Of a stretch of DNA of 64,000 bases, positions 19,886 through 60,575 are shown piece after piece; position 1 is the stretch's first letter; each line of letters opens with the position of its first letter. This stretch comes from Candidatus Hodarchaeota archaeon (GTDB lineage: Archaea > Asgardarchaeota > Lokiarchaeia > Sigyniarchaeales > SOKP01), in assembly GCA_048886685.1 (NCBI GenBank), contig JBHLKM010000008.1:1-64000 (forward strand), written 5' to 3'. The notes beneath the pieces were generated by a model. That model ran no database searches and was not told the origin of the DNA. It worked only from the letters and a program-made list of their open reading frames with translations. The translations under genes and the position numbers were made by a program.

Positions 19886-21592
19886 TTATTCCTCTTTAAA
19901 GGCTTGTTCCCTTAATTTTCTTCTAAATACTTTACCAACAGCAGTACGTGGTAAAACATTTAAAAACTCAACTTGTCGTGGATATTTATATCCTGCCATT
20001 CTTTCTTTTGCCCATTCGATTATATCCTTCTCTGTAGTTTTATCTTTGTATTCTGGCTTAAGTACGATACATGCTTTTATTGTTTCCCCAATATTTGGAT
20101 CGGGTGCAGGAACTACACCTACTTCTAAAACAGCAGGATGTTCGTATAATTTCTCTTCAACTTCCCGAGGCATGACTTTATATCCTTTGTACTTTATCAT
20201 GTCTTTTGTGCGTCCTTCAATGTAAAAATAACCTTGTTCGTCCATTCGGGCAAGGTCACCTGTTCTTAACCATCCATTTATAATATTCTTTTCTGTTTCT
20301 TCCGGTTGATTCCAATATCCTTTCATTATCTGAGGTCCTTTAATGAGTAGTTCTCCTATCTCTCCTATTGGAAGTTCTTCTAAAGTTTCAGGATTTACAA
20401 TTTTAGAATCAGTGTTGATTATTGGAACACCAATACTTTCAGATTTTATTTCAGGCATCCAAGTAGTAGCTGTATGTGTTATAGGTGACGCTTCAGTTAG
20501 TCCAAAACCTTGTCCTGGTTTTATACCCGTTACTTCTTCCCATTTCTTGGATATTTCAAGAGGAAGTGCAGCAGAACCGGCACCAGCGGTTTCAATGCTA
20601 GATAAATCTCGTTCTGTGAAGTCAGGAGAATTAACGATCATCTGGAACATGACTGGAACTCCAACAAATCCTTTTACTTTATAATATTCAATAGCTTCTA
20701 ATACCTCAGATGGATTAAAAGATGCGAACATGACTAACATTGCGGCTATATGCATGGCAATAATAACGACTGTAAAACCAAAAGAATGACACAAGGGCAG
20801 AATTGATAAATTTACACCAACACCATAAGCACTAGGTTCATCTTCTGCTGGTTCACCCGCCATATACATTGCTGAGAGGGCATCGGCTACTAAATTATTA
20901 TGAGTTAGCATTACTCCTTTAGGTAAACCTGTTGTTCCGCCAGTATATAATAAAGCAGCAACATCATTTAATGGATCAAATTCGACTTCTGGAGGTTTGG
21001 GTGATTTACCATTAATGAATTCTGTTAATGTAATTGTATCTTCCTTTGCTTCTTCGGTACCGATTAAAATCACATTTTCTAATTCAACTTGTTTTCTAAC
21101 TCGTTTTATTACTCGATATTGATTCTTATGGATGAAAACAGTATTAATGTTTCCGGCGTCTTTAATAATGTGAACAACATCTGCTTCCTTGAGTAGAGAA
21201 TTTATAGGGACAACAGCAGCACCTGTTTCCATGATACCTAGGAGACAAAACAAGAATTCCGGGCAATTACTTGACATCACTCCTACCGCATCACCTTTTT
21301 TAATACCAGCTTCGTGTAAAGCATTTGCTATTTTATCTGCGGTATATATTAATTCTCTATATGTATACTTTTTATCCGATGGTTTATAGTACACACATAC
21401 ATTATTAAGAAACTGCCCAGCTCCTTTTTTGATAAATTCATGTACGGGTATTGGTTCAAATTTTATTGATTTTGGCACATTTTCTGGTCTATATTTAAAC
21501 CAGGGACGATTTGGGTTTTCAATATATGGTGATTCGTTTTCAAAATCTAAAAAAGGTTCCCAATCAGTATAATCTTTCATTTTAATTGCCAC
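19886..21592 (-). CDS. Long-chain fatty-acid--CoA ligase (FadD-like)
   Basis: YTGGTTGLPKG, GFGLTEASP, WLRTGDLA, GRTKDMI, PRTAVGK. Confidence 0.93.
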   Translation of the reverse strand: MAIKMKDYTDWEPFLDFENESPYIENPNRPWFKYRPENVPKSIKFEPIPVHEFIKKGAGQFLNNVCVYYKPSDKKYTYRELIYTADKIANALHEAGIKKGDAVGVMSSNCPEFLFCLLGIMETGAAVVPINSLLKEADVVHIIKDAGNINTVFIHKNQYRVIKRVRKQVELENVILIGTEEAKEDTITLTEFINGKSPKPPEVEFDPLNDVAALLYTGGTTGLPKGVMLTHNNLVADALSAMYMAGEPAEDEPSAYGVGVNLSILPLCHSFGFTVVIIAMHIAAMLVMFASFNPSEVLEAIEYYKVKGFVGVPVMFQMIVNSPDFTERDLSSIETAGAGSAALPLEISKKWEEVTGIKPGQGFGLTEASPITHTATTWMPEIKSESIGVPIINTDSKIVNPETLEELPIGEIGELLIKGPQIMKGYWNQPEETEKNIINGWLRTGDLARMDEQGYFYIEGRTKDMIKYKGYKVMPREVEEKLYEHPAVLEVGVVPAPDPNIGETIKACIVLKPEYKDKTTEKDIIEWAKERMAGYKYPRQVEFLNVLPRTAVGKVFRRKLREQAFKEE

Positions 21593-21872
21593 TTTCTTTT
21601 ATTTTATTTTTCTTTCTATTCGAATTTTTTAATGAGACTTTATTAGGTTAAAAAATAACTCAATTTAGTAATAATGAATTCATTATGTATATAAAAGTGT
21701 TTTTTATAAAGCGACAAATTTGATAAACGTATTTTTATTAATTAGTCTTTATATTATTATTAAAATAAGATTGAAGACATGCCTTTAGGATGCACCTCAA
21801 TTCGGGAACTTAGAGAAAGCTAAAATGAAAAGATGTAATCTAAAGCATCTAATATTAAAAAATAAGCTCTAA

Positions 21873-22892
21873 TTAAGGTTTTATTAAAACCTTTATAGAC
21901 TCATCTGTATTACATTGAGTTTCAAAAGCTTCTTTAGCCCTATCCAATGGAAATTCATGAGAAATAATTTTTGACTGATCTACTTTTTTAGTTTGAAGTA
22001 ATTTTAAGCATTTTTGAACTTCCTCAGGAATAAATCCAAATGATCCCATGATAGTTATTTGCTTTGCAACCAATGCTACAAGATTTAGAGGGATTGTATC
22101 TTCAAATATTCCGTGAATCACGATTCTACCCGTACCTACACTTGCTATATCGATTGCTTGCTGGAGGACTATAGGCCCTTTATGATCTTTCATATGACCT
22201 ACACAATCATATATAACATCAACTTTAGGCATTTTGATATCTGGAGCTTGTGGTAAAGGTATAGATTCAACGAGTTTACTTATTCTTATACGGGGATTAT
22301 TTTTTCTTGCATTGATAACCTCATCAGCACCTAACTGTTTTGCTGTGTTTAAGCGATGATCTGATAAATCAATTACAATCAGTTTATTAATACTAATATC
22401 AAGAGCTTTCAAGCATTGAATTATGCCTAATCCGATTGTTCCAGCTCCAAATATAACGACATTATCTTCTTTAGAAGGATTACCTTTCATCATCGCATGA
22501 TATGAATTGCTTAGAGGTTCAAGTGTCGCTGCTTCTTCATATGAAACTTCTGAAGGTATTTTATACACATTGAATCCTTCAAGAACGGGAACTGGAACAT
22601 ATTCTGCCATACCGCCAGCATTCAATGCTACAACTCTATCACCTTCCTTTATTCCATTTACTTTATTTCCTACTTTTTCTACATAACCACTGAATTCATG
22701 ACCAGGTATTCCCCCCATTGCTAGAGGCCTTACAAGAACCAGAGTAAACAGATTTAATTTATACATGTGCAGGTCTGAGCCGCATATCCCACAAGCCTTT
22801 ACTTTAATAAGAATTTCATTGTCTTGAATTTTAGGTTTTTCCACTTCTTCAGTTCTGATGTCTCTTGGACCATAAAAAACTGCTGCTTTCAT
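21873..22892 (-). CDS. Zn-dependent medium-chain alcohol dehydrogenase (no structural-Zn lobe)
   Basis: CGICGSD, GHE, GAGTIG; the 4-Cys structural zinc loop is absent. Confidence 0.9.
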   Translation of the reverse strand: MKAAVFYGPRDIRTEEVEKPKIQDNEILIKVKACGICGSDLHMYKLNLFTLVLVRPLAMGGIPGHEFSGYVEKVGNKVNGIKEGDRVVALNAGGMAEYVPVPVLEGFNVYKIPSEVSYEEAATLEPLSNSYHAMMKGNPSKEDNVVIFGAGTIGLGIIQCLKALDISINKLIVIDLSDHRLNTAKQLGADEVINARKNNPRIRISKLVESIPLPQAPDIKMPKVDVIYDCVGHMKDHKGPIVLQQAIDIASVGTGRIVIHGIFEDTIPLNLVALVAKQITIMGSFGFIPEEVQKCLKLLQTKKVDQSKIISHEFPLDRAKEAFETQCNTDESIKVLIKP

Positions 22893-23037: not shown

Positions 23038-23901
23038 ATGAAAGAATTTAAAGGTAAGGTTGCCGTTATTACAGGAGCGGGAAGTGGTATTGGTTTTGCT
23101 TTAGCAGAACGGTGTGCTAAAGAAGGTATGAAAGTAATATTGGCAGATATTGATGAAAGATTCTTAAGAAGTGCCCAAAGAAAAATGAAAAGAATTGGAG
23201 CTACATTCATTACAGTTTTAACAGATGTTTCAAAGGTCAACGATATGGAAACATTAGCAAAGAAGACAATTGATACATATGGAGCAGTTCATCTACTAGT
23301 TAATAATGCGGGAATCGGTAATACTAAATACACCTGGAATTATACTCTAAAAGATTGGGAATGGCAATTAGGGGTGAATTTATGGGGTGTTATTCATGGT
23401 GTAAGAATTTTTACTCCTATTATGTTAAAACAAGGCGGTGAATGTCATATTGTAAATGTTGCATCCATGGAAGGATTGGCTTCTGGTTCTGGTCCTGGTG
23501 GTGTTATTTATGGTGTTTCTAAGCATGGTGTAATTTCTTTAACCGAAACCTTACGAACTGATTTAGAAATGAAAGAGTTTAAATTGAAAGTTTCAGTATT
23601 ATGTCCAGGATTCGTTAATACAAGAATTTTCTTAGGTGATATTCATCGCCCAGAAGAATTTCAGAATCCACCAGATCAACTAGTTGAAAGTACAAGAGGA
23701 AAAGATTATTTTGCACATTTTGGATATACACTTGAAGAGCTGGGTAAAGAAACGACACTTATGCCTCCCGAACAAGTTGCAGATATCACATTTCAAGGTA
23801 TTATGGATGAAAAGTTATACATTTTTACCCACAAAGATGCGATCATGAAGAGATTGGTAAAACAACGATTTGATGAGATTCTTAATGAATTGGATAATTA
23901 A
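23038..23901 (+). CDS. Short-chain dehydrogenase/reductase
   Basis: TGAGSGIG, NNAG, YGVSK, CPGFV. Confidence 0.93.
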   Translation: MKEFKGKVAVITGAGSGIGFALAERCAKEGMKVILADIDERFLRSAQRKMKRIGATFITVLTDVSKVNDMETLAKKTIDTYGAVHLLVNNAGIGNTKYTWNYTLKDWEWQLGVNLWGVIHGVRIFTPIMLKQGGECHIVNVASMEGLASGSGPGGVIYGVSKHGVISLTETLRTDLEMKEFKLKVSVLCPGFVNTRIFLGDIHRPEEFQNPPDQLVESTRGKDYFAHFGYTLEELGKETTLMPPEQVADITFQGIMDEKLYIFTHKDAIMKRLVKQRFDEILNELDN

Positions 23902-23919
23902 TATATTAAATGATGAGTT

Positions 23920-24765
23920 ATGAAGAATTTTAAAAATTAAGTAGCAGTTATCACTGGTGCTGCCAGTGGCATTGGCCAAGGGCTAGCAGAGCGATGTACT
24001 AAAGAAGGAATGAAAGTAGTTATATCAGATGTTGATGAGCGACGTTTAAAAAGATTAGAAAGAAAATTAAAAAGAGAAGGGGCTGATACATTATCAATTA
24101 TAGCTGATGTTTCAAATCCTGATGACGTTAATATGTTAGCAAATAAAACTGTGGAAACCTTCGGAGAGGTTAATTTGCTATTTAATAATGCGGGGGTTGC
24201 TATTCCTAACCTTACTTGGGAGTACGGATTAGAAGATTGGGAATTTGTACTTGGAACTAACCTAATGGGAGTAATTCATGGTATTAAGACTTTTATTCCC
24301 ATCATGCTTAAACAAGGTAATGAATGTCACATTGTAAATACTTCATCAATAGAAGGAGTAATCTCCAATGGTGTAGGTGGGGCTACATATGGGACGTGTA
24401 AACATGCCCTCGTGCACCTTACAGAGAGATTGGCTCTTGAATTAGAGGAAAATGGGCCAAATATTAAAGTTTCAGTTCTGTGTCCAGGATTTGTTAAAAC
24501 CAATATATTTCTGTCAGCCCTTAATCGTATATCTGAAGATCGAAGAAAAGAGCTATTAAATCCTGAAGAAAGGGATGAAGAAAGAGCAGAGCAAATAAAA
24601 GAGTTAATGGAAAGCTCTCCTATGCTATTACCTGAAGAAGTTGCGGATATCGTGTTCCAGGCTATTAATAAAGAAAAATTATATATTTTTACTCATAAAG
24701 ATGCATTTTGGAAAGAACGAGTAAAAGAACGTTTCGATGCAATTTTACAATCATTTGATGATTAA
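23920..24765 (+). pseudogene. SDR tandem paralog with a premature TAA at codon 7
   Basis: ATG 23920 MKNFKN-TAA(23938-40)-VAVITGAASGIG... in frame with ORF 24010; the neighbour reads MKEFKGKVAVITG. Confidence 0.85.
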
Positions 24766-24768: not shown

Positions 24769-25809
24769 TCAAGTTTTTATGAAATAGATTTTTTTATCTT
24801 TTTCAATTCTTTTTACTTTATTTTGATGTTCTAAATAAATTAAATGACTTAAAGCTTCCCCTAATCCTAAGTATGTGTTAATCTCATCTAAATCATCTCC
24901 AAAATGAATTTGAGAAATCTTGAAAGGAGTTAATGGGTTATTTTCAATTAACCGAGAAATCTCAGATAACCGATTTCGATGATGTTCTTTCATTTCTAAT
25001 ATTCGCCTATGAGAATCGTAAATGACTTCTTGATGGGCAGGAAAGATAATTTTAGGATGTAGAGCATCAATGCGATCTAAGGATTCTAAATAATATTTCA
25101 AAACATTGTTGAAATCATAACTCTGATAATTTTCTGAGATATCCGCTGGTACCATATAACTCCCTATGTGTGGAGTTATCCTGGATAAAATATGATCTCC
25201 TGCAAATAAGTGAGAAGTATTTTCATTAAAAATGCAAATATGACCTAGTGAATGGCCAGGGGTCCAAATCGTTTTTAACTTGTTGCCACCTATAGAGATT
25301 TCCTCATTATCGCGCAAAATTCTATCAGGTGCCTGATATTGTGTGAAACTTCGCATTGCAGTGAGAAATTTCATAATTCTTTCTCCCTGTTTTTGGCTAA
25401 CACCGTACTTTATCATTTGTTGTGATAATTCCTCAGATCCCTTCTGCCTTTCACTAATATTATCCCTATTTATCATCCAGCTCATACTATCTTGGGTTAG
25501 TTCATGCATTAAGATTTGAATATCAGGATTTTTTCTCTTTAAAGAATTCATTAATCCTAAATGATCTGGATGTTCATGTGTCACTATTAAGTAATCAATG
25601 TCTTCAATAGATATATTTAATTTTTCAAGTTCCGAATAGAAAGATTTCTCCCAATCAGTGAAATTTAATCCCGCATCAATTAAAATATAGGTATCTTCGG
25701 ATTTAAATAAATACATGCACACGAATCTTAAACCGTATGAAGTAGGAAAATCGATTTGAAATCGAAATACTCCATCAATTTCACTTGTTTTAGAATGTAA
25801 CTTATACAA
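24769..25809 (-). CDS. MBL-fold metallo-hydrolase
   Basis: THEHPDHLG, TPGHSLGH, AGDH, PAH; C-terminal winged-helix-like tail. Confidence 0.9.
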   Translation of the reverse strand: MYKLHSKTSEIDGVFRFQIDFPTSYGLRFVCMYLFKSEDTYILIDAGLNFTDWEKSFYSELEKLNISIEDIDYLIVTHEHPDHLGLMNSLKRKNPDIQILMHELTQDSMSWMINRDNISERQKGSEELSQQMIKYGVSQKQGERIMKFLTAMRSFTQYQAPDRILRDNEEISIGGNKLKTIWTPGHSLGHICIFNENTSHLFAGDHILSRITPHIGSYMVPADISENYQSYDFNNVLKYYLESLDRIDALHPKIIFPAHQEVIYDSHRRILEMKEHHRNRLSEISRLIENNPLTPFKISQIHFGDDLDEINTYLGLGEALSHLIYLEHQNKVKRIEKDKKIYFIKT

Positions 25810-26108: not shown

Positions 26109-26498
26109 ATGATGAGAAGTATTCAAGAAAGTCTAATAACACGTTTAAAAGTCCAAACAAAAATTGGAAATAAAATTAAAGTTTTTAAATGCTCTAAATG
26201 TGGAAATATTAGAAATCCACCAAGAACTTATTGTAATATATGTCAAGGTACTGATTTTGCTGAGGTTGTATTCGGACCTAAGGGTGAGATTACAACCTAC
26301 ACCTCATCATATAAAAGGAAGGAAACCGATAAACAGCTCTTTTTTGGCATGGTCCGGATTTTTTCTGAGAATGGAAAAGATTCTATGGGAGTAAGCGGAT
26401 CATTTGATGTTAAAAGTATCGACGAACTCGAAATCGGGAAAAGGGTAGAGTTAATACCTGATGAGAAGAATAATATATTTAAATTACTGGAGGGTTAA
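26109..26498 (+). CDS. DUF35 Zn-ribbon/OB-fold protein (thiolase partner)
   Basis: CSKCG...PPRTYCNIC, GEITTYT; directly upstream of a thiolase. Confidence 0.85.
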   Translation: MMRSIQESLITRLKVQTKIGNKIKVFKCSKCGNIRNPPRTYCNICQGTDFAEVVFGPKGEITTYTSSYKRKETDKQLFFGMVRIFSENGKDSMGVSGSFDVKSIDELEIGKRVELIPDEKNNIFKLLEG

Positions 26499-26502
26499 TA
26501 AA

Positions 26503-27729
26503 ATGAAAAATGTAGCAGTAGTAGGTGCGGGAATGTCTCCTTTTGGAAGACTCGATGCACTCTTATATCAAGAAATTGGAAGACCTGCGGTAAATGATGC
26601 CATAGAAAATGCCGGAATTGATCGTAAACTGATTGAAAGTTGTTATTATGGCAGTTGTGGGGGTGTAGGTGTTGGTCATGAAATCATGAATGAATGTGGA
26701 ATGATTGGAATTCCGATTACAAGAGTAGTGAATGCATGTAGTGCTGGCTCTAATGCGTTCCGAATAGCTTATATGGACATAGCTTCAGGAATGAGTGACT
26801 GTGTAATGGCAATGGGAATTGAGAAAATGAAAGATGTATCAATGGGTGCTGTTGGTGGAGGAACTCGGTTTCAAATCGAAGCAAAAGCTTTTGCTCACGG
26901 TTCACCTATGGCAGGAGGTGGAGGTGGAGGTGGTGGTATGGCAGCAGGTTTTGCTTTAATGGCTCGAGCACATATGAAGATGTATGGCACAAAAGTAGAG
27001 GACCTTGCCAATATAACAGTAAAAAGCAGAAGAAATGGTTCAAAAAATCCTAAAGCAGAATTTCAGAATATCATGACTTTACAGGAGGTTTTAGATGATG
27101 TTATGATAAATGATCCACTGACTAGATCACAATGTTGCCCTCGAACGGATGGAGCTGCAGCCGTAATACTTATGAGTGAAGATTTTGTCAAAAAACATCA
27201 TATAGAAAGTCCAATTTGGGTTAAAGGAAGTGCTATGGGAAGCAATTTTGGAAGTGCGAATGAAAGAATTTGGTTCAAGGAAACTGGAAGTTATTACCCT
27301 CCAGGATTTCTTACAGATTACTTAATTTCACAGAAAGTTTATAAAATGGCAAAGGTTGGACCAAAAGATTTCTATGACAGAGGTTTCGTTGAATGTCATG
27401 ATTGCTTTTCAATTTCAGAGTATGTTCATTATGAAGATTTCGGTTTCTGTAAAAAAGGTGAAGGTTCTGCCATGATTAATGACGGTGTTGTAGAAATTGA
27501 TGGTGATCTTCCCATAAATCCTAGTGGGGGCTTACTATCTGTTGGACACCCATTAGGAGCTACTGGTGTACGACAGGTAGCTGAAATCTTCTGGCAAATG
27601 ACAAAACATAAGGAAGTCGCTAAACGACAAGTTCCAGATAAACATCTTGATCTTGGACTTCAACATACCTTAGGACAACCAGGTGTAGGTTTTACTAATG
27701 TAATGCATGTCTTTTCAAGAGATCTCTAA
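26503..27729 (+). CDS. Thiolase, SCP2/SCPx-type
   Basis: NACSAG catalytic Cys, ECHDCF, NPSGGLL, GHPLGATG. Confidence 0.9.
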   Translation: MKNVAVVGAGMSPFGRLDALLYQEIGRPAVNDAIENAGIDRKLIESCYYGSCGGVGVGHEIMNECGMIGIPITRVVNACSAGSNAFRIAYMDIASGMSDCVMAMGIEKMKDVSMGAVGGGTRFQIEAKAFAHGSPMAGGGGGGGGMAAGFALMARAHMKMYGTKVEDLANITVKSRRNGSKNPKAEFQNIMTLQEVLDDVMINDPLTRSQCCPRTDGAAAVILMSEDFVKKHHIESPIWVKGSAMGSNFGSANERIWFKETGSYYPPGFLTDYLISQKVYKMAKVGPKDFYDRGFVECHDCFSISEYVHYEDFGFCKKGEGSAMINDGVVEIDGDLPINPSGGLLSVGHPLGATGVRQVAEIFWQMTKHKEVAKRQVPDKHLDLGLQHTLGQPGVGFTNVMHVFSRDL

Positions 27730-38305: not shown

Positions 38306-38317
38306 TTTTAACACCTT

Positions 38318-51946: not shown

Positions 51947-51992
51947 TTAAGAATAATTGTTAAATTTGATTCAACATTAATGGTAAATCAAT
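51947..51992 (+). promoter_or_regulatory. Duplicated promoter element, copy 1
   Basis: 38/46 identical to 53601-53646; contains the imperfect palindrome TGTTAAAT-N3-ATTCAACA after TTTAAGAA. Confidence 0.6.
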
Positions 51993-52020
51993 TAATACTC
52001 AAAATGATGAATAGATAAAA

Positions 52021-53502
52021 ATGTCAAAAGTTAAAGAAGCATATAGTGAGATTGAGAGTGTTGTTGGGGAAGATTATGTATCCGATAAAGATTTCATGAA
52101 AGCAGCCTACTCTAGAAACGTCGATCCAGCGTTTCCTGACCGTTGGGCAGATATTATAGTAAGACCAGAAACTACTGAAGAAGTATCTGAGATTGTCAAA
52201 ATTGCGAATAAATACAAATTGCGTATGGTTCCTAGAGGTGGGGGTGCTGATCTGGTCGGGGGAAGTGTTACCGAAGAGGGGATACTAATTGATATGACAC
52301 GTATGAATAAGCTTGAAGAGTTTAATAAAGATGATTACTATATTGTAGTTGGAGTTGGAATTACGTGGGGAGATTTACTTTCTCAATTGGTACCTCAGGG
52401 GTATACAACAGGGATTACTGGTCCTGGGAGTGGATACTCTGCTACTATTGGGGGAGGTCTGTCGAATAGCACAGCGGGAGGAGGGTCAACTAAATACGGT
52501 CTCGTGCCTGACATCTGCCTTGGAGTTGAGGTGGTGCTTCCCAATCCAGAAGGAACGATAATTAGAACAGGTTCAGCAGCCAACAAATATGCAAAACCTT
52601 TTTGTAGGTATGGGGTTTCACCTGATTTTACAGGTCTGTTCATGGGTGACGTGGGCACCATGGGAATTAAATGCAAAGCATATTTACGAATATTCCGCGA
52701 ACACCCCTATAAAGCTAATCGTGTTTTTCTCCTCAAAGAATATGATTATAATAAAGTTTATTTGTTAGCTAAAAAAATTAGGTATGAAATTCCTGATGGT
52801 CTGCTTGGTTTAAGTGCATTTCCACCATTTTATTTTGCCCAATTTAAAATCCCAAACGCTAAAGGTCCAGGAATTTCAGTTACGCTAGAAGCTATGGAAA
52901 TGGAGATACTTAATATGTGCATTAAAAAACTTGAAGATATCATGAAGGAAGACACAATAATGATACCTGCCGCCCCTGGCGCTAACGCTGAACCTAATTT
53001 GAAAGCGGCTTTTCACTACTTTCAACCTTTGATTTCCCCGGTCCCTGGAAGAATTGCTATGGCAACATGTCATAAAATTCCAATCTCAACTTTAGGTAAA
53101 GTTCATGATGAGAATGTCGAGTGGAATAATAGGCATGCAAAAGATATACCAGGTTCAGTTATGCCAGGAGTATTTGAGGCAACACAGTACTTCTTACCCA
53201 ACGGAAATATGGTAGTCTTAGGAGGGGTAGCAGGAGAAAATAAGGATGAAATGCGGGAGAGGAATATGAAGCTATGGCATTCAAAAATTCGAACCCAAGT
53301 TCGATATGGTGGCGCTCATTATTGGCTAGGAGAATCTATTTCACAATCCCTTACCGAATCTGGAGCGTTTACACCGGAATATGAACAATTCTTCAGGGAT
53401 ATGAAGAAAACAGTTGATCCTAATTACCTTCTTTCGCCAAATAAGTTTCATCTGCATACTTACGATTCAAAGTTCGCAGATTATTATGTAGAACCGGATT
53501 AA
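52021..53502 (+). CDS. FAD-binding oxidoreductase (VAO/GlcD family), paralog B1
   Basis: Same FAD-domain motifs; MATCHKIP; HYWLGE. Confidence 0.9.
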   Translation: MSKVKEAYSEIESVVGEDYVSDKDFMKAAYSRNVDPAFPDRWADIIVRPETTEEVSEIVKIANKYKLRMVPRGGGADLVGGSVTEEGILIDMTRMNKLEEFNKDDYYIVVGVGITWGDLLSQLVPQGYTTGITGPGSGYSATIGGGLSNSTAGGGSTKYGLVPDICLGVEVVLPNPEGTIIRTGSAANKYAKPFCRYGVSPDFTGLFMGDVGTMGIKCKAYLRIFREHPYKANRVFLLKEYDYNKVYLLAKKIRYEIPDGLLGLSAFPPFYFAQFKIPNAKGPGISVTLEAMEMEILNMCIKKLEDIMKEDTIMIPAAPGANAEPNLKAAFHYFQPLISPVPGRIAMATCHKIPISTLGKVHDENVEWNNRHAKDIPGSVMPGVFEATQYFLPNGNMVVLGGVAGENKDEMRERNMKLWHSKIRTQVRYGGAHYWLGESISQSLTESGAFTPEYEQFFRDMKKTVDPNYLLSPNKFHLHTYDSKFADYYVEPD

Positions 53503-53600
53503 AGATAAGATAAGACAAATTAAATTCTTTATTTTTCTTTTATTTTTTATTTTCAGCTAAATTTCTTTTTAAGGAAATCATAATGTAAATGGAATTTGAA

Positions 53601-53646
53601 TTAAGAATAACTATTAAATTAAATTCAACATTAAAAAGAAATCAAT
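53601..53646 (+). promoter_or_regulatory. Duplicated promoter element, copy 2
   Basis: TTAAGAATAACTATTAAATTAAATTCAACATTAAAAAGAAATCAAT, 38/46 identical to copy 1. Confidence 0.6.
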
Positions 53647-53663
53647 ACACATTAACAAAAAAA

Positions 53664-55205
53664 GTGATAAAAATTTCGAAAGTTAAAGAAGCATATAGTG
53701 AGATTGAAAATGTTGTTGGAGAAGACTATATAACTGATAAAGACTTTATGAAAGCAGCTTATTCAAGGAATGTTGATCCGGCATTCCCCGATAGATGGGC
53801 AGATATGATTGTACGGCCCGAATCTACTGAAGAAGTCTCTGAAATAGTCAAGATTGCCAATAAATATAAAATTCGAATGGTACCACGAGGTGGTGGTGCT
53901 GATCTCGTTGGAGGGTCCGTAACTGAAGGTGGGATTCTAATAGATCTTACAAGAATGAATCAAGTTATAGAATTCAATAAAGATGATTACTATATCGTAG
54001 TTGGATGTGGGATCACTTGGGGTGCCTTAATATCACACTTACACCCTACAGGTTATACTACTGGTATCATTGGTCCAGGAAGTGGGTTTTCTGCGACAAT
54101 CGGAGGTGGACTCTCTAATAGCACTGCAGGTGGGGGATCTACTAAGTACGGCCTTGTTCCTGATATTTGTTTAGGTGTTGAGGTAGTTCTTCCAAATCCT
54201 GAAGGGACTATTATAAGAACTGGATCAGCGGCAAATAAATATGCAAAACCTTTCTGTCGTTATGGGGTTTCCCCTGATTTCACTGGATTATTCATGGGAG
54301 ATGTAGGTACCATGGGAATTAAGTGTAAAGCATTCCTGCGATTGTTTCCTGATCCTCCCTACAAGCAGGCACGTATGTATGTCCTTAATAAAGAAGATTA
54401 TAACAAAGTATTTGAATTAACACATAAAATCCGGCATGAAATAAATGAGGGATTGAGAGATCTTTCTGTATTACCTGCAATTTTAATCCAAATGGCAGCT
54501 ACTCAATACCATCAACGAACTGGTGAAAGGATTAAAGCGAGGGGACCTCTAATGAATATAACAATAGAAACCATGGAGGAAAGTACATTAGAACTTAAAT
54601 TAGAGAAACTTGCAAAGATTATGGAGAATGATGCAGTTCAAGTACCTGGTTCATTGATAAATCCAGAATTTGATGATGAACCCAAATTTGGATATGATTT
54701 AGAAGGGACTTTTCATTTTTTTCAAGCATCTATTTCGCCAACACCATCTCAAATGGGAATGGCTACATGTCATAAAATTCCAATCTCACATATGGGTGAG
54801 GTATATAATAAGATCATTGATTTCAGTAAGAAACATGCTAGTGAGATGCAAGGTGCGATCTATCCTGGAATTTTTGCATCTATGCTTTATTTTCTCCCAA
54901 ATGGTAATTATGTAGTTTTAGGCCAAGCTACTGGGAAAAATGTAGAAGAAGAACGTGAAAAGAATATGGAAAGATGGCATAAAAAGATACGACATCAAGT
55001 TCGTTATGGAGGTGCTCACTACTGGCTAGGAGAGTCAATATCACAATCACTTACCGAGGCTGGAGCGTATACTCCAGAATATGAGCAATTCTTCAGAGAT
55101 ATGAAGAAAACCGTTGATCCCAACTATCTTTTAAGCCCAAATAAGTTCCATCTTCACACTTACGATTCGAAATTTAAGGATTATTATGTAGAAGAGGAGG
55201 ATTAG
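53664..55205 (+). CDS. FAD-binding oxidoreductase (VAO/GlcD family), paralog B2
   Basis: Homology to paralogs starts at ATT 53673 (I-SKVKEAY vs M-SKVKEAY); in-frame GTG at 53664; the ORF-track ATG 53589 lies upstream of the duplicated promoter. Confidence 0.88.
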   Translation: MIKISKVKEAYSEIENVVGEDYITDKDFMKAAYSRNVDPAFPDRWADMIVRPESTEEVSEIVKIANKYKIRMVPRGGGADLVGGSVTEGGILIDLTRMNQVIEFNKDDYYIVVGCGITWGALISHLHPTGYTTGIIGPGSGFSATIGGGLSNSTAGGGSTKYGLVPDICLGVEVVLPNPEGTIIRTGSAANKYAKPFCRYGVSPDFTGLFMGDVGTMGIKCKAFLRLFPDPPYKQARMYVLNKEDYNKVFELTHKIRHEINEGLRDLSVLPAILIQMAATQYHQRTGERIKARGPLMNITIETMEESTLELKLEKLAKIMENDAVQVPGSLINPEFDDEPKFGYDLEGTFHFFQASISPTPSQMGMATCHKIPISHMGEVYNKIIDFSKKHASEMQGAIYPGIFASMLYFLPNGNYVVLGQATGKNVEEEREKNMERWHKKIRHQVRYGGAHYWLGESISQSLTEAGAYTPEYEQFFRDMKKTVDPNYLLSPNKFHLHTYDSKFKDYYVEEED

Positions 55206-55216: not shown

Positions 55217-56422
55217 ATGACAGAGTTTGATCCAAAAGAAAAGTTTAAGCATTTGGCAAAAATTGGTCCAAATGTATTGCAATGTATTGCGTGCGGTGAT
55301 TGTAGAGAACAAACTGATTATACTGGCAATCCACCAAGATGGGGGGTATGCGTTGCCAAAGACCATACTTCTGGATTTGAACCCTATTTTGCAAGGGGGA
55401 AAATGCAGATTATTCGGTCTTTATGGCAGGGTAAATTAGAATTAAGCAAAGAAATGGCAGAAGTGATTTATCAATGTCCTACATGTAACACTTGTGCAGA
55501 AGCATGTGCGTATGATATGGATAATGTTGCATTGTATGAAGCACTAAGAGCCGAATTGGTAGATGCTGGTTGTGGTCTTGAAGTTCATATACCAATGAAT
55601 AAAGCCATGGTTGAACTGTTAAATCCTTATGAAAGAGATAATAAGCTTAAGGCCGAGTGGTTAAAAAAGCTAGATTTCAAGGTGAAGGATGCGAATACGG
55701 AACAAGCAGAAATTTTATATTTTGTTGGATGTACTGCAGCTTTAACTCCGGATATTGAGAATGTAGCAATTAATACTGCAAATATTCTTAAAAAACTAAA
55801 CATAGATTTTTCAGTATTTGGAGAACAAGAAGTTTGTTGTGGGAGCGTTGGAATGCGAACAGGAGACCTAAAAGCTTTTAATTCTGTAGCAACGAAGAAT
55901 TATGAAATGTTTAAGAAAAGTGGAGTGAAAACTATAATAACAAGCTGTGCAGGTTGTTATAGAACTTTAAAGAAAGATTATGCTGATCATATGGAAGATT
56001 TAGGAATTACTGTTTACCATACCATTGAATTCTTAAACAAATATATAAAAGAGAATAATATACAATTAAAGAATTTAGGTTTAAATACCACATATCATGA
56101 TCCATGTCATACAGGACGTCATATGGGTCTTTTCGAAGAACCACGAGAGATTTTGGGGAAGATTTCGAATTTAACTGAAATGAAGACTATAAAACAGAGC
56201 GCAAAGTGCTGCGGTGCTGGAGGAGGAGTTAAAAAGGGATTCCCAGAATTATCATTAGAGATCGCGAAAAGCAGAATAAAGGAAGCTGAGGAGACAGGAG
56301 CAGAATATTTAGTAAGTATGTGTCCTTTCTGTTTTAGGAACTTAGCAGATGCAATAGATGCAAGTGGTTCCAACCTAAAAATGGTTGATTTAACAGATTT
56401 AATAAATCAAGCTTTAGATTAA
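55217..56422 (+). CDS. (Fe-S)-binding CCG-domain protein (GlcF/HdrD-like)
   Basis: CIACGDC, CPTCNTCAEAC, VCCG, CAGC, HDPCH, CCGAGGG, CPFC; GGTGA RBS; 11 bp after paralog B2. Confidence 0.9.
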   Translation: MTEFDPKEKFKHLAKIGPNVLQCIACGDCREQTDYTGNPPRWGVCVAKDHTSGFEPYFARGKMQIIRSLWQGKLELSKEMAEVIYQCPTCNTCAEACAYDMDNVALYEALRAELVDAGCGLEVHIPMNKAMVELLNPYERDNKLKAEWLKKLDFKVKDANTEQAEILYFVGCTAALTPDIENVAINTANILKKLNIDFSVFGEQEVCCGSVGMRTGDLKAFNSVATKNYEMFKKSGVKTIITSCAGCYRTLKKDYADHMEDLGITVYHTIEFLNKYIKENNIQLKNLGLNTTYHDPCHTGRHMGLFEEPREILGKISNLTEMKTIKQSAKCCGAGGGVKKGFPELSLEIAKSRIKEAEETGAEYLVSMCPFCFRNLADAIDASGSNLKMVDLTDLINQALD

Positions 56423-58476: not shown

Positions 58477-58592
58477 TTTTTTTTTTTTAAAATAAAGTTT
58501 ACAAAAGAAATATTATTAGGACATTTTATAAGATTTTATCTTAAAGAAGAAAATAATAATTAGAAAAAAACATAAATGGAGCTTGAAAAAAT

Positions 58593-60575
58593 ATGGTAAA
58601 ATTATCAGATCCGATTACAATCAGAGGAATGACCGCAAAAAATAGGATAGGTTTTCCACCTATGTTAACATTTTCATCTGATGGGAAAGGAGGTCCTTCT
58701 CCCAGAACTTTTAATGTACATAGATTAAAAGCTCAAGGAGGAGTTGGAATGATAACATATGAGAATACCGGCCTTGAACCTGTGGCGGGGATGGGAAGTG
58801 CAAATATTGGCAAAGATGAACTTATTCCAGCTTACAAAAGTTTAACGGATATGGTGCATAGCCATGGTGCGAAAATAGGAATGCAAATTGGAAATGGGAG
58901 TTTAATAGGATTTTCTTTTGCGAACTTTTTGTTTAATATAAATCCTGGAAATCCTATAGGACCATCTAAAGTGGATTTAGCAAAAGCTACAGATGCATAT
59001 ACATTATATGATCCAACCTGGCCTGATAAACTAAGAAAAGAGAATTTTGAAATGCAAGTTCTTACTAAAGAGCAGATTCTGGCAATCGAAAATCTATTTG
59101 CAGAAGGAGCAAGAAGAGCAATCGAAGCTGGTTTCGATTATGTGGATATTCACTCTGGACATGGTATGTTACATGCTTCATTTTTATCTCCTTGGCTCAA
59201 TAAAAGGACTGATGAATATGGAGGTTCAATAGAAAATCGGTGCCGGTTTCATACCGAGACTATGCAAAAAATCAGAGAAAAAATTGGGGAAGAGCATCCA
59301 ATATTCATACGGTTTTCTGCTGATGAACTTATCGCTGAGGGAAATAGAATTGAAGACGGTATAAAGATAGCCAAAGCGTTAGAAAAAGGAGGAGCTGATT
59401 GTCTAGATATAACTCAAGGTATCATATATAGGAGTCCATTTGGAATTGAAATTCCATCCTACTGTAAACAAGGATGCTTCATTCGTTTACCCGAAGCAAT
59501 TAAGAAGGAGGTTAATATTCCTGTTATAGGGGTTGGGAGAATAACAAATCCAGCAATGGCAGATCAATTTATCCAAGAAGGAAAAGCTGATATTATATAT
59601 ATGGGAAGACAATTAATTTGTGACCCTGAGACACCCAATAAGTATTTCAGTGGACGTGCTGATGAAATCAGGTATTGTATGGGATGTCTACAGGATTGTA
59701 GTCGTGGATGCGTCCAAGATATTTTTGGAGGTCAAACTTACCGAGAGTTAACACCCTCTGAAGAACCAAAGAAAATTGTTATTTTAGGGGCAGGAATTGC
59801 TGGTTTAGAAGCTGCGAGACTTGCGAAACTTAGAGGTCATAAAGTTAAAATATATGAAAAAACGGATAAGGTTGGAGGACTAGTTAGGTTATTAGCAGCA
59901 GAGTATGGGAAATCAGATTACATAAACTCAGTAAATTATTCAGAATCACAATTAAAAAAATTGGGTGTTCCGATTAATTTAAATAAAGAGTTAACTAAAA
60001 ATGAGATTGTTAAGTTAAATCCTGATATTTTGGTTCTAGCAACTGGATCAGAAGCTACATTACCCGTGAAATTGAAAGATAAGCCAAATGTTATAACTCA
60101 AGATGAGTCGATACTTAAAAATAAGCCATTGGGTAAAGATATTGTCATTTGGGGATTAGAAGTTTACTGGCGGGGAGGACTTGAAACATGTATTTCACTT
60201 ATAGAGGAAGGATACAATGTGAAAGCTCTTATTGGTCCAGAAAAATCATTAGGAGAAACGATAAAAGGTCGTCAAGGAAGGAGATTCTGGTTACTCAATT
60301 ATCTAAAGAAAAATGATATTCCAATTTATAAAGAAGCCAAACTTCTAGAGGTAACTGAAAATGAAGTGAAATTCTTGGATGAAAATGAGGAAGAGCAATC
60401 AATCCAAGCAGACACTTTAGTATATTGTGGCTCACGTATTTCACATGGAAAGAAATTAAAAGAAGATTTTGAAGGTGTTGCTCCAGAGATTATTCTTATA
60501 GGAGACTGTAATAAACCAAGAGATATCAATACAGCAATAAGGGAAGCTCAAACTTTTGCTATGAAATTAAAATAA
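58593..60575 (+). CDS. FMN/4Fe-4S/FAD oxidoreductase, tandem paralog
   Basis: HSGHG, RTDEYGGS, CMGCLQDCSRGC, GAGIAGLEAA, IGDC. Confidence 0.88.
   Translation: MVKLSDPITIRGMTAKNRIGFPPMLTFSSDGKGGPSPRTFNVHRLKAQGGVGMITYENTGLEPVAGMGSANIGKDELIPAYKSLTDMVHSHGAKIGMQIGNGSLIGFSFANFLFNINPGNPIGPSKVDLAKATDAYTLYDPTWPDKLRKENFEMQVLTKEQILAIENLFAEGARRAIEAGFDYVDIHSGHGMLHASFLSPWLNKRTDEYGGSIENRCRFHTETMQKIREKIGEEHPIFIRFSADELIAEGNRIEDGIKIAKALEKGGADCLDITQGIIYRSPFGIEIPSYCKQGCFIRLPEAIKKEVNIPVIGVGRITNPAMADQFIQEGKADIIYMGRQLICDPETPNKYFSGRADEIRYCMGCLQDCSRGCVQDIFGGQTYRELTPSEEPKKIVILGAGIAGLEAARLAKLRGHKVKIYEKTDKVGGLVRLLAAEYGKSDYINSVNYSESQLKKLGVPINLNKELTKNEIVKLNPDILVLATGSEATLPVKLKDKPNVITQDESILKNKPLGKDIVIWGLEVYWRGGLETCISLIEEGYNVKALIGPEKSLGETIKGRQGRRFWLLNYLKKNDIPIYKEAKLLEVTENEVKFLDENEEEQSIQADTLVYCGSRISHGKKLKEDFEGVAPEIILIGDCNKPRDINTAIREAQTFAMKLK

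Follow-up and report, generated by a model that had tools for sequence, protein, structure and literature searches.

Our analysis of the region between positions 19886 and 60575 of the window (the whole 64,000-nucleotide stretch of DNA that was analysed, from a Loki-type Asgard archaeon) points, with about even confidence, to an accreted, lineage-specific neighbourhood of accessory genes for the catabolism of branched or bulky acyl-CoAs. Searches against Pfam, NCBIfam and the PDB identified four AMP-ligases, an AMACR-like protein, two SCP2-type thiolases, a free SCP2, a DUF35-like protein, two crotonases, SDRs, a Zn-ADH, five VAO-type flavoproteins, two CCG Fe-S proteins and two FadH/NCR-like flavoproteins, confirming every gene class that a sequence-only reading had placed in this island. 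That reading was also correct in reporting that the window lacks an acyl-CoA dehydrogenase (ACAD): none was found on contig C8, and approximately 14 ACADs, together with three ETF pairs, are encoded elsewhere in the genome. A stretch of 34 consecutive ORFs holds 22 genes from 10 island families, compared with at most nine genes and seven families in the best stretch of shuffled gene orders (n = 300); the clustering thus exceeds chance, with the families taken from the island itself and the gene count raised by tandem duplication.

The island has a GC content of 35.1% (30.9% for the genome), which places it in the top 0.3% among equal-sized windows. Since it contains at least 10 strand switches, and at least 10 transcription units interspersed with unrelated genes (PIN, TPR, transglutaminase-like, epimerase, MBL hydrolase and nucleoside-hydrolase-like fragments), it is a neighbourhood and not an operon. 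No regulator or transporter genes were found inside the island, and its proteins all appear soluble. None of its enzymes reached a curated NCBIfam equivalog cut-off, and therefore no substrate was assigned. Genome-wide, the ligase, CCG and VAO families comprise 29, 27 and 17 members, respectively, and such expansion makes some co-location expected, which counts against the catabolic reading favoured here. An MBL-fold hydrolase (24769..25809, minus strand; Lactamase_B, 1.5e-24) occupies the same place in genomes G003, G011 and G023. Outside the island coordinates, a short OYE-type flavoprotein that keeps the HAAHGYF motif (17216..18349, plus strand; Pfam Oxidored_FMN, 1.6e-55) is a conserved backbone neighbour; G003, G010, G013, G014, G023, L017 and L019 likewise have an OYE close to the VAO-CCG core.

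Among the acyl-CoA enzymes, the AMACR/MCR-like family III protein (29831..31045, minus strand; CoA_transf_3, 2e-100) matched M. tuberculosis MCR best in the PDB (5e-54), with the CoA-transferase SUGCT nearly as good (1e-51), and scored 187 bits for MCR versus 130 bits for the BbsF-type transferase. Its AGHDINY, PAD and GAIEP motifs align with His126, Asp156 and Glu241 of the mycobacterial racemase, so that all three catalytic positions are kept, whereas the His and Glu are absent from two transferase-type paralogues in the same genome. These residues bear out the proposed AMACR-like identity, and the product is predicted to be a 2-methylacyl-CoA racemase. SCP2-type thiolase 1 (26461..27729, plus strand; Thiolase_C_1) carries the Cys nucleophile in NACSAG, the SCP2-thiolase motif HDCF (PMC12329534) and GHP, and matched 6esq (207 bits), 6hsj (205 bits) and BbsB (180 bits). 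The start of its gene is overlapped by 38 nt by the gene of a DUF35-like Zn-ribbon/OB protein (26109..26498, plus strand), whose zf-ChsH2 match (E 0.008) falls under the Pfam threshold. DUF35 proteins account for four of its six top PDB matches (E 0.002-0.15), with BbsA seventh (0.47); the DUF35 matches include 3irb, 6htj, 6esq_E, 6ok1_B and 7pxp_A (E 0.002-0.5), and the protein is likely the scaffold partner of thiolase 1. The crotonases, encoded in tandem (27865-28713 and 28921-29787, plus strand; ECH_1, about 1e-33), are 64% identical to each other, and each retains Glu at the two catalytic positions, in its GGGxE and (P/L)E motifs.

The FadD-type AMP-forming acyl-CoA ligase (19886..21592, minus strand; AMP-binding, 2e-86) scored 446 bits against the NCBIfam long-chain ligase model PRK06187 (cut-off 476), and its orthologues adjoin SDR-CCG-VAO genes in G010, G013, G014 and G023. 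Orthologues of the Zn-dependent (MDR) alcohol dehydrogenase (21873..22892, minus strand; ADH_N and ADH_zinc_N) were found only in G003 and G011 among the contigs examined. SDR 1 (23038..23901, plus strand; adh_short, 2.9e-45) reached 302.6 bits for NCBIfam PRK06194, with a cut-off of 308. SDR 2 (23920..24765, plus strand) contains an in-frame TAA at 23938-23940 that precedes the glycine-rich NAD motif TGAASGIG; its Pfam match starts from profile position 25, and the next canonical start is at 24010. Ligases 2 and 3 (31386-33074 and 33309-35018, minus strand; AMP-binding in Pfam), which share an RRRGENI(S/A) motif, and ligase 4 (42912..44585, minus strand) are CaiC/FATP-like and mutually 60-63% identical. 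As anticipated from their FATP-like appearance, all three matched human FATP2 best in the PDB; for ligase 4 this match (1.8e-49, 172 bits) was followed by oxalate-CoA ligase (156 bits).

The free SCP2 (40051-40491, plus strand) is genuine (Pfam SCP2, 1.1e-12) and stands beside thiolase 2 (40599-41849, plus strand), an arrangement found only in G000, G003 and G017. In thiolase 2, HDAT replaces HDCF, so that the cysteine of this motif is missing; the protein matched zebrafish SCP2-thiolase best in the PDB (196 bits), with an archaeal thiolase (190 bits) and BbsB (189 bits) close behind; both thiolases belong to the SCP2-thiolase clade. Further redox proteins include a fusion of a 2x[4Fe-4S] ferredoxin with a nitroreductase-fold flavoprotein (35981..37033, plus strand; Pfam), whose orthologues lie inside the module in G003, G017, G023 and L018, and two tandem OYE, Fe-S and FAD/NAD(P) flavoproteins of the FadH/NCR/BaiCD type (56488-58476 and 58593-60575, plus strand; Oxidored_FMN and Pyr_redox_2). 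This OYE/FadH pair matched NCR (4e-62) and FadH (9e-55) in the PDB and scored 389 bits for NCBIfam BaiCD against a cut-off of 825. Its members carry HSAHGTL and HSGHGML together with a CxxCxxxCxxxC motif, the usual proton-donor Tyr being absent, and their genes also adjoin VAO-CCG in G017, G020 and L018.

The VAO proteins were expected to work with Fe-S partners, and gene adjacency together with a modelled complex supports their pairing with CCG proteins. VAO1 (38318-39829, minus strand; FAD_binding_4) and CCG1 (37076-38314, minus strand; two CCG domains and Fer4_8) form a two-subunit dehydrogenase pair whose genes are 3 nt apart (38315-38317), and the pair is kept in G003. VAO2 (46644..48179, minus strand; FAD_binding_4, 2e-38) is 61-68% identical to VAO3, VAO4 and VAO5, which lie in tandem (50293..55205, plus strand; Pfam) ahead of CCG2 (55217..56422, plus strand; two CCG domains and Fer4_8), an HdrD/TfrB-like Fe-S subunit with TfrB as its best NCBIfam match (228 bits, cut-off 385) and no hydrophobic segment. 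In the VAO proteins, LPNGN and GG(V/A)HYWLGE stand in the positions of the GlcD-type motifs, the metal triad of D-2-hydroxyacid dehydrogenases is absent, and FAD-oxidase_C is barely detected by Pfam. At least 10 further VAO-CCG pairs were found in the genome, and others at L020-L022; these VAO proteins constitute an uncharacterised Asgard-wide clade that is always paired with a CCG protein. The AF2 model of VAO3 has a pLDDT of 93.7, and the modelled VAO3-CCG2 complex reached an ipSAE of 0.89, compared with 0.06 for the best of three controls. Its runs had at least 95% common contacts and a partner pLDDT of at least 91, and that mark was attained for 58 of 80 solved complexes and for 2 of 110 mismatched pairs, counts that hold only roughly because our own alignments were used. 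VAO3 is therefore predicted to bind CCG2, as the modelled binding passes its controls. An ADC-family gene, which in most other genomes goes with the VAO-CCG core, is absent here.

Comparison across the genus revealed the full island in only 3 of 24 genomes, with collinearity in G003 and G017. Its left module (ligase, racemase, crotonases and thiolase) stands alone on G011:C42, while its right module (VAO, CCG, ligase, thiolase and OYE/FadH) also occurs in G020 and G023; the minimal core consists of ligase, SDR, ADC, CCG and VAO. At L018 the right module forms a nine-gene co-directional run (SDR, VAO, Fer4-nitroreductase, ligase, thiolase, ligase, VAO, CCG and OYE/FadH), and in other Asgard contigs (L030 and L031) a trio of ligase, crotonase and racemase-like genes occurs with MFS_2 transporters. 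Relatives thus keep the linkage in part, and the proposal of a single 40-kb pathway gives way to a lineage-specific fusion of separable modules. Since the modules are found apart and the whole island in so few genomes, they may serve different substrates.

Taken together, three smaller conserved modules would have been joined by accretion and tandem duplication between backbone genes, with the short OYE and a CDF transporter on the left flank and DsrE-DsrE-DsrH on the right. In the left module, the AMP-ligases would form CoA thioesters, the AMACR-type racemase would interconvert 2R and 2S 2-methylacyl-CoA, the two crotonases would hydrate the enoyl-CoA, an SDR would oxidise the 3-hydroxyacyl-CoA, and the SCP2-type thiolase would perform the cleavage on its DUF35 scaffold. 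The desaturation step could fall to one of the ACADs located elsewhere in the genome or to the FadH/NCR-like flavoproteins. In the right module, soluble two-subunit dehydrogenases, in which a VAO-fold flavoprotein docks on the ferredoxin-like domain of an HdrD-like CCG protein, would oxidise some group on the same substrate class and pass electrons to Fe-S clusters, not necessarily to O2. Their co-workers would be a CaiC/FATP-like ligase, the second SCP2-type thiolase, the ferredoxin-nitroreductase fusion and the OYE/Fe-S flavoproteins. We infer the catabolic direction, the electron acceptor and methyl-branched or otherwise bulky lipid-like acids as substrates, while naming an isoprenoid, ether lipid or sterol would be speculative. 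Several features weigh against this reading: SUGCT matches the family III protein nearly as well as MCR does, thiolase 2 and the OYE/FadH pair each lack a residue usual in their families, SDR 2 is interrupted by a stop, and the ADC-family companion of the VAO-CCG core is missing.

The reading proposed from the sequence sees in the island the anaerobic archaeal equivalent of the peroxisomal machinery for pristanoyl, bile-acid and ether-lipid substrates, which would scavenge isoprenoid ether lipids or the side chains of sterols or hopanoids, with AGPS-like VAO proteins acting on ether bonds; this reading appears very unlikely. The AMACR-type triad, FATP2 as the best solved match of ligases 2-4, the zebrafish SCP2-thiolase as best or near-best match for both thiolases and the SCP2 adjoining a thiolase are all consistent with it, and the recent duplication behind four of the VAO paralogues hints at several related substrates. 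However, the VAO proteins match AGPS over the FAD domain only (61-79 bits, versus 91-93 for D-LDH/PCMH types), AGPS is missing from the Foldseek top 50, and its N-terminal domain and HHH loop are absent. A specific tie to eukaryotic peroxisomal enzymes likewise found no support, since the archaeal thiolase and BbsB match the thiolases equally well and the racemase reference is bacterial; the same toolkit is textbook in mycobacterial cholesterol catabolism. Moreover, 3-methyl-branched phytanyl chains require alpha-oxidation or carboxylation, for which the island offers no candidate. It is also quite improbable that the island serves as a fermenter's reductive electron sink, in which unsaturated or 2-hydroxy acids are CoA-activated and reduced by OYE/FadH-type enzymes (Fld/Car/Bai logic) with VAO-CCG as redox links. 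Among NCBIfam models the OYE/FadH pair matches BaiCD best, at less than half its cut-off; the ligase, family III protein, SDR and OYE-Fe-S flavoprotein are Bai/Fld enzyme classes, and the island has no ACAD. Lokiarchaeia are described as syntrophic amino-acid fermenters (PMC7015854). Against this, the family III protein has the racemase triad and not a plain transferase site, the thiolases and hydratases imply chain shortening, and a dehydratase, whether of the 2-hydroxyacyl-CoA or the BaiE type, is lacking.

It is unlikely that the island is a beta-oxidation-like route for acids that arise when hydrocarbons or aromatics are activated anaerobically, by alkyl-/benzylsuccinate (bbs/ass type) or naphthoyl-CoA-type ring reduction, although several matches point to it. 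Alkylsuccinate degradation employs a methylacyl-CoA racemase; among solved structures the OYE/FadH pair matches 2-naphthoyl-CoA reductase best, the thiolases match BbsB strongly (180-189 bits), the DUF35-thiolase and paired SDRs resemble BbsAB and BbsCD, and PCMH-type phenol oxidases rank near the top when the VAO model is compared by structure. The genome also encodes six PFL-like glycyl-radical enzymes, and Ass/Bss-like genes are reported in Lokiarchaeota (PMC8163825). Yet the BbsB equivalog model gave 196-207 bits (cut-off 750), the family III protein favours MCR over the BbsF-type transferase, BbsA is among the weakest DUF35 matches, and glycyl-radical enzyme, BbsG-type ACAD and benzoyl-CoA reductase are all absent from the contig. 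That the island has no common pathway, and is a recombination-prone, GC-atypical spot piling up functionally unrelated modules from very large families, seems distinctly unlikely. The genome-wide expansion, GC deviation, many strand switches, pseudogene-like SDR and nucleoside-hydrolase fragments, unrelated inserts (PIN, TPR and an epimerase seen only in G000), and differing gene content among genus members are in line with it, but 10 families share one stretch where shuffles gave at most seven, and the same combinations return in tight co-directional runs of other genomes.

Several known systems resemble parts of this accreted neighbourhood. The VAO proteins share their fold with GlcD/LDHD-type D-2-hydroxyacid dehydrogenases that use GlcF/HdrD-type CCG subunits (GlcDEF; archaeal and sulfate-reducer Dld-HdrD): mouse LDHD is the best Foldseek match (TM 0.76/0.85), the GlcD profile match is full-length but weak, and the adjacent CCG partner is obligate. 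In contrast, the metal and substrate motifs HxGDGNxH and GEHG give way to LPNGN and GG(V/A)HYWLGE, and the genes usually stand next to those of acyl-CoA enzymes or an ADC-family protein and not next to lactate or glycolate genes. AGPS belongs to the same VAO superfamily and its FAD-binding domain aligns, whereas the Fe-S partner implies net redox chemistry, which AGPS lacks. The OYE/FadH pair has the full-length three-domain architecture of FadH, 2-naphthoyl-CoA reductase and BaiCD, but with Thr or Met for the conserved Tyr of HxxHGYL and the cluster motif shortened to CxxCxxxCxxxC. With the bbs operon for benzylsuccinate beta-oxidation (BbsEF, BbsG, BbsH, BbsCD and BbsAB) the island shares a family III protein, crotonase, two adjacent SDRs and a DUF35-thiolase pair, while differing in its racemase-type active site, the lack of BbsG and a BbsB model score far under the cut-off. 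The bacterial 2-methyl-branched and steroid side-chain beta-oxidation (mycobacterial MCR, FadD ligases, EchA19, Hsd4A-type SDR, and Ltp/SCP2-type thiolases with DUF35), with its eukaryotic peroxisomal equivalent (FATP2/VLCS, AMACR, MFE-2 and SCPx), shares both its families and its order of chemistry with the island: ligase, His/Asp/Glu racemase, hydratase, SDR, and HDCF thiolase with DUF35 or SCP2. The island differs in that no ACAD or acyl-CoA oxidase is in the cluster, no equivalog cut-off is reached, the hydratase is crotonase-type and not MaoC/hydratase-2 type, the SCP2 is free and unfused, and the host is archaeal and anaerobic; it also joins to this set the VAO-CCG and OYE/Fe-S flavoproteins, which are absent from the side-chain beta-oxidation pathways.

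Pfam assignment of the 34 open reading frames of at least 90 aa between positions 19886 and 60575, which we refer to as the island, revealed a set of acyl-CoA and redox enzymes. The island lies in the first 64 kb (the window) of the 172-kb contig C8, within a 4.4-Mb genome of 47 contigs. Its close homologues bear Promethearchaeota or Lokiarchaeota names, which identifies the host as a Loki-type Asgard archaeon. From left to right, it comprises a FadD-type ligase (19886-21592) and a Zn-ADH on the minus strand; two SDRs (+); an MBL hydrolase (-); a 129-aa Zn-ribbon protein (26109-26498) that overlaps a thiolase (thiolase 1, 26461-27729) and is followed by two crotonases, all on the plus strand; a family-III CoA-transferase-fold protein (29831-31045), two ligases (ligases 2 and 3, 31386-33074 and 33309-35018) and a PIN gene (35173-35667), all on the minus strand; a ferredoxin-nitroreductase fusion (+); a CCG Fe-S protein (CCG1, 37076-38314) and a VAO-type flavoprotein (VAO1, 38318-39829), both (-); SCP2 (40051-40491), a second thiolase (thiolase 2, 40599-41849) and two weak nucleoside-hydrolase-like fragments, all (+); and a third paralogous ligase (ligase 4, 42912-44585), a TPR protein (44716-46569) and another VAO (VAO2, 46644-48179), all (-). 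The right end, entirely on the plus strand, carries a protein of the epimerase/3-beta-HSD fold (48396-49478), a transglutaminase-like protein, three VAOs (VAO3-5, 50293-55205), a second CCG protein (CCG2, 55217-56422) and two OYE/Fe-S/FAD flavoproteins (the OYE/FadH pair, 56488-60575). This order agrees with the gene inventory of the sequence-only reading, which was also correct in stating that no acyl-CoA dehydrogenase is encoded here: none occurs on the whole of contig C8, and about 14 are found elsewhere in the genome together with three ETF pairs. No island enzyme reached a curated NCBIfam cut-off, the carnitine, BbsB, BaiCD and steroid-ligase models all falling far short.

The families concerned are large genome-wide (29 ligases, 27 CCG proteins, 19 SDRs, 18 crotonases, 17 VAOs and 13 thiolases). 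The island nevertheless holds 22 such genes from 10 families in its 34 ORFs, as against at most 9 genes and 7 families for the best stretch in 300 gene-order shuffles and 9 genes from 4 families in the second-densest real stretch of the genome, a comparison in which the families were defined from the island itself and the gene count is inflated by tandem duplicates. Paralogues within the island are 60-63% identical for ligases 2-4, 61-69% for VAO2-5, 64% for the crotonases, 60% for the OYE/FadH pair and 57% for the CCG pair. The GC content of 35.1% places the island in the top 0.3% of equal-sized windows of the genome (30.9%, SD 1.2%; left flank 29.9%), which could point to horizontal acquisition or to no more than a dense packing of conserved enzyme genes.

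Several smaller features accompany this inventory. SDR 2 (23920-24765) reads ATG-AAG-AAT-TTT-AAA-AAT-TAA, then VAVITGAASGIG, with the in-frame TAA at 23938-23940 directly before the NAD-binding motif and an ATC at 23950; possible explanations of the TAA are a nonsense change from AAA, an error in the assembly and unusual initiation. The two small fragments at 41916-42188 (E 0.15) and 42355-42834 (E 0.011) show weak similarity to inosine-uridine nucleoside hydrolase, in its N-terminal and its middle part respectively, are both kept at 75-79% in the related genomes G003 and G017, and may represent a split or decayed gene. The epimerase/3-beta-HSD-fold and PIN genes had a counterpart in none of the relatives' contigs that were read, and the TPR gene had weak partial ones only; all three look like recent insertions into the island. 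On either side of the island lie a 281-aa protein (15353-16198, -) with weak longin/sybindin-like Pfam matches (E 0.007-0.1) and a 263-aa protein (61874-62665, +) with a weak GRAM match and a zinc ribbon at its C terminus; relatives conserve the two proteins, which are candidates for the eukaryote-signature type.

The family-III protein had been read as AMACR-like, and its active-site residues agree with this reading. Its best solved relative is the M. tuberculosis racemase MCR (5e-54, 187 bits), nearly equalled by the CoA-transferase SUGCT (1e-51, 179 bits). In the alignment, AGHDINY of the window protein falls on MCR His126, PAD (PAD-IGG) on Asp156 (GD156FGG) and GAIEPKFW on Glu241 (GAIE241PQFY), the three active-site residues studied in MCR; His126, in GHDINY, is one of two catalytic bases, and Glu241 hydrogen-bonds His126 of the other subunit (PMC10967716). 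The Asp156 equivalent is not discriminating because family-III transferases have the same Asp. His and Glu are both present in the window copy and in a 65%-identical copy on contig C5, and the two other family-III paralogues of the genome (C11 and C21) carry Met or Phe at the His position and no Glu. With all three AMACR/MCR catalytic residues in place, racemase function is predicted. The C5-type copy occurs in 22 of 23 same-genus genomes, with 43-51% identical copies in other families of the order, and the island-type copy (at least 74% identity) is confined to the relatives G003, G011 and G017 (4 of 24 genus genomes including the window's own), a distribution that marks the island copy as a recent duplicate of a conserved Lokiarchaeial gene. 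No coherent pathway could be made out around the C5 paralogue, whose neighbourhood contains an ACAD 4 kb off, a split TPP enzyme, an LRR gene and a polyprenyl synthetase; on two other Asgard contigs (L030 and L031), the island-type gene again has one or more ligases, one or more crotonases and MFS_2 transporters as neighbours. Homologues in public records are all named 'CaiB/BaiF CoA transferase family protein', an ESM Atlas feature search returned an 'alpha-methylacyl-CoA racemase family' cluster only as its third match (a lead, no test), and our literature searches found no paper linking Asgard and AMACR.

By their scores, both thiolases belong to the clade of SCP2-thiolase, archaeal thiolase and BbsB with no clear preference: thiolase 1 gave 207 bits with the archaeal thiolase 6esq, 205 with the zebrafish SCP2-thiolase and 180 with BbsB, and thiolase 2 gave 196 with the zebrafish SCP2-thiolase (6hsj), 190 with the archaeal enzyme and 189 with BbsB. 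The HDCF motif of SCP2-thiolases supplies the acid/base Cys (PMC12329534). Thiolase 1 has the nucleophile Cys (NACSAG), HDCF313 and GHP362, and thiolase 2 retains the nucleophile and GHP and reads HDAT310, with Ala replacing the Cys of HDCF, such that the SCP2-thiolase signature is absent. The SCP2 protein, a clear Pfam match, is encoded by a separate gene upstream of thiolase 2, unlike the C-terminal fusion of SCPx, and this adjacency is found only in the window's genome, G003 and G017. The 129-aa protein overlapping thiolase 1 contains four Cys in total (CxxC...CxxC) and matches zf-ChsH2 below the Pfam threshold (E 0.008), with its OB part not detected by Pfam; its top PDB matches are DUF35 proteins (E 0.002-0.5), including the archaeal thiolase partner and ChsH2-DUF35. 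Both catalytic glutamates are retained in both crotonases. Among the ligases, ligase 4 matched human FATP2 best in the PDB (172 bits), by only 16 bits over oxalate-CoA ligase and 4CL (156 each), and ligases 2-4 have in common the motif DRKKDSIRRRGENI(S/A) (RRRGENI(S/A)), which we take to resemble FATP and CaiC motifs alike; the best NCBIfam model for the ligases, PRK06155, was far under its cut-off. Assignment to the carnitine (cai) pathway was rejected (the CaiB, CaiC and CaiD models gave 84, 232-297 and 71 bits, with cut-offs of 413, 651 and 500 respectively), as was bbs membership on scores or motifs. The idea of a membrane anchor in the FadD-type ligase was dropped because the hydrophobic stretch (residues about 260-295) falls within the AMP-binding domain.

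The five VAO enzymes had been likened to AGPS, and here the sequence-only reading did not hold. Matches to solved structures cover the FAD domain only, with PCMH/vanillyl-alcohol dehydrogenase types at 93 bits, mouse LDHD at 91 and AGPS at 79 (Dictyostelium) or 61 (mammalian), and the FAD domain of the window proteins begins near residue 45, as against residue 203 in mammalian AGPS, whose N-terminal domain has no equivalent here. An AlphaFold model built from a 70-sequence alignment (pLDDT 93.7, pTM 0.93) retrieved mouse LDHD first in Foldseek (TM 0.76/0.85), followed by PCMH-type phenol oxidases, with no AGPS entry in the top 50. In LDHD and D2HGDH, the His-His-Glu metal site (HxGDGNxH ... 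GEHG) forms the metal/substrate triad. The canonical GlcD-type member of the alignment (P0239) reads HAGDGNLH and GEHGIG, and all five window VAOs and their Asgard orthologues read LPNGN-x-(I/V) and GG(V/A)HYW(L/M)GE in place of these motifs; they therefore have no metal/substrate triad of the D-2-hydroxyacid dehydrogenase kind, and the AGPS HHH loop is likewise absent. Contigs bearing Loki-, Hod-, Heimdall-, Hermod- and Thorarchaeota labels contain homologues that are 64-90% identical, and the clade spans 202 50%-identity clusters at E below 1e-30. No characterised member was found among them, the homologues being named just 'FAD-binding oxidoreductase'. Long relatives (about 890-990 aa) considered as VAO-CCG fusions proved to be tandem FAD_binding_4/FAD-oxidase_C proteins (GlcD-GlcE-like) with no CCG domain.

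The VAO and CCG genes form a unit. They are separated by 3 nt (VAO1/CCG1) and 11 nt (VAO5/CCG2), at least 10 further VAO-CCG pairs exist in the window's genome, and the pairing recurs in other genomes; the contigs of two distant VAO relatives (P0124 and P0125) are too short to show more than the CCG neighbour. The modelled VAO3-CCG2 complex scored 0.89, against 0.06 for the best of three controls, a mark reached by 58/80 solved complexes and 2/110 mismatched pairs, counts that hold only roughly here because alignments of our own were used. Model runs had at least 95% of contacts in common with a partner pLDDT of at least 91, and placed residues 18-99 of CCG2, its ferredoxin-like N-terminal portion, on the VAO FAD domain and part of the cap, which supports a predicted VAO3-CCG2 binding. 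The CCG proteins have no hydrophobic segment and are closest to TfrB/HdrD, under cut-off.

Directly beside the VAO-CCG/OYE end of the island lies a DsrE-DsrE-DsrH (TusBCD-like sulfur-relay) triplet (60642-61743, -), and the same placement occurs on two contigs of other Asgard assemblies (L017:7091-8192 and L019:8815-9912) and in two genomes of the genus (G023:C20 about 13.7-14.5 kb, and G017:C69). HdrD/DsrK-like CCG proteins reduce disulfides or trisulfides, and by this analogy the VAO-CCG enzymes could conceivably use a sulfur acceptor bound to a protein. Across Asgard lineages, the gene that most constantly neighbours the VAO clade is an acetoacetate-decarboxylase-family (ADC, PF06314) gene (L017:9086-9877; L019:11623-12420; L020:8989-9768; L021:9057-9848; G010:C8 33117-33902; G013:C16 9920-10666). 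It is missing from the island studied here, whose genome contains just a remote, weak, fragment-like match at C4 about 165.6-166.0 kb.

The OYE/FadH pair has a complete OYE, [4Fe-4S] motif and FAD/NAD(P) architecture, with NCR as the best solved relative. Where that family reads HxxHGY(L/F), these proteins read HSAHGTL or HSGHGML, the proton-donor Tyr being changed to Thr or Met, and their cluster motif is compressed to CxxCxxxCxxxC. A long last spacer is kept in the short OYE at 17216 and in the genome's two other long paralogues. Membership in the Bai group was rejected, the BaiCD model giving 389 bits against a cut-off of 825.

Comparison with related genomes revealed a patchwork of modules. 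G003:C85 keeps the gene order of the window from 8 kb as far as CCG2, at the end of that contig, and the OYE/FadH genes of G003 lie on another one; in G017, C114 runs from crotonase 2 to VAO5, and C69 carries VAO5, CCG2, two OYE/FadH genes, DsrH/E/E and the 263-aa gene. The left part recurs on G011:C42 as three OYEs, CDF, SDRs, ADH, MBL, DUF35 and thiolase 1, continuing through three crotonases, the racemase-like gene and ligases to the contig end; in this 92%-complete assembly, no VAO orthologue was found with the query used. The right part recurs on G023:C20 (FadD, SDRs, MBL, ligase, Fer4-nitroreductase, VAO, thiolase 2, VAO, CCG and DsrEEH), on G020:C142 (VAO, CCG and OYE/FadH) and, in another Asgard assembly, on the 1.27-Mb contig L018 as a run of nine genes that all point the same way (SDR, VAO, Fer4-nitroreductase, ligase, thiolase, ligase, VAO, CCG, OYE/FadH). 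A minimal core in G010, G013 and G014 comprises only the short OYE, CDF, FadD ligase, SDR, ADC-family protein, CCG and one VAO, and contigs of more distant Asgard lineages hold ADC and VAO (with or without CCG), with OYE, CDF, MFS and DsrEEH genes nearby. Among the 24 genomes of the genus, including the window's own, VAO2-5-type orthologues were found in 9, the island-type OYE/FadH in 5 and the whole island in 3. Since modules recur in relatives, the lack of linkage that the sequence-only reading had named as telling against it was not what we found; module sets are kept, albeit with no conserved 40-kb pathway.

We favour a catabolic reading of the island, at about even odds. The enzyme families, their catalytic residues and the linkage within modules are shown here, together with a contact between subunits in a model; the direction, substrates and electron acceptor of the following route are inferred. 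The four ligases would activate free acids to CoA thioesters, and the racemase-like enzyme would equilibrate the C2 epimers of 2-methylacyl-CoAs. Desaturation would fall to an ACAD/ETF system encoded elsewhere or to the FadH/NCR-like enzymes, unusual in being without the proton-donor Tyr, after which the crotonases may hydrate the product and an SDR may oxidise the 3-hydroxyacyl-CoA. Cleavage would be carried out by the SCP2-type thiolases, one with a DUF35 scaffold and the other with an SCP2 companion, and the VAO-CCG dehydrogenases would oxidise another functional group on the same substrate class, passing electrons to Fe-S clusters; in this reading, they are the evolutionary core.

Competing explanations differ in the substrate, in the direction and in whether there is a pathway at all. 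The substrates could be hydrocarbon- or aromatic-derived acids, as suggested by six glycyl-radical enzymes, PFL-like and about 800 aa long, on contigs C21, C1, C19 and C3 of the window's genome, by the Ass/Bss-like genes reported in Lokiarchaeota (PMC8163825), and by NCR being the closest solved relative of the OYE/FadH pair. Two of the six glycyl-radical enzymes are in tandem on C3 (228-232.6 kb). The genes could also serve a reductive electron-sink pathway of the Bai/Fld type, or belong to no common pathway. The sequence-only reading had proposed scavenging of isoprenoid or ether lipids. Our literature searches on Lokiarchaeota and archaeal-lipid recycling turned up no evidence of lipid catabolism. 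We consider the ether-lipid idea, as well as that of peroxisome ancestry, improbable on present evidence. Very unlikely indeed is the combined proposal, that the VAO-fold/CCG dehydrogenases and the ligase, thiolase, ferredoxin-nitroreductase and OYE/Fe-S flavoproteins linked to them constitute an undescribed oxygen-independent Asgard route for oxidising and shortening methyl-branched (isoprenoid-derived, possibly ether-linked) lipids, and that the AMACR-like, SCP2-thiolase and FATP-like genes are specifically related to the ancestors of eukaryotic peroxisomal enzymes.

No known prokaryotes are closer to eukaryotes than the Asgard archaea, whose diet in anoxic sediment has been deduced mostly from genomes. 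Three findings are new. One is an Asgard-wide VAO/CCG clade with no characterised member found, which has no 2-hydroxyacid metal site, is always accompanied by an HdrD-like Fe-S subunit and is repeatedly joined to acyl-CoA ligases, SCP2-type thiolases and OYE/Fe-S enzymes. Another is a predicted racemase-type gene, unannotated as such, in which a family-III enzyme with the complete AMACR triad is kept across a Lokiarchaeial genus under the public label of a mere 'CoA transferase'. The third is that all modules have accreted together in just a few species; they are mobile accessory units, and they vary from one species to the next within a single genus. Once the substrate is worked out, a real catabolic capacity could be added to models of Asgard ecology, and the origin of peroxisomal branched-chain enzymes would become a testable question.

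The left module functions in the same way as the bacterial and peroxisomal sets for 2-methyl-branched beta-oxidation, and an enzyme set of this type is textbook in mycobacterial degradation of the cholesterol side chain. The resemblance to a peroxisomal toolkit provides no evidence of ancestry; it is not special to Asgard and is common to many bacteria.
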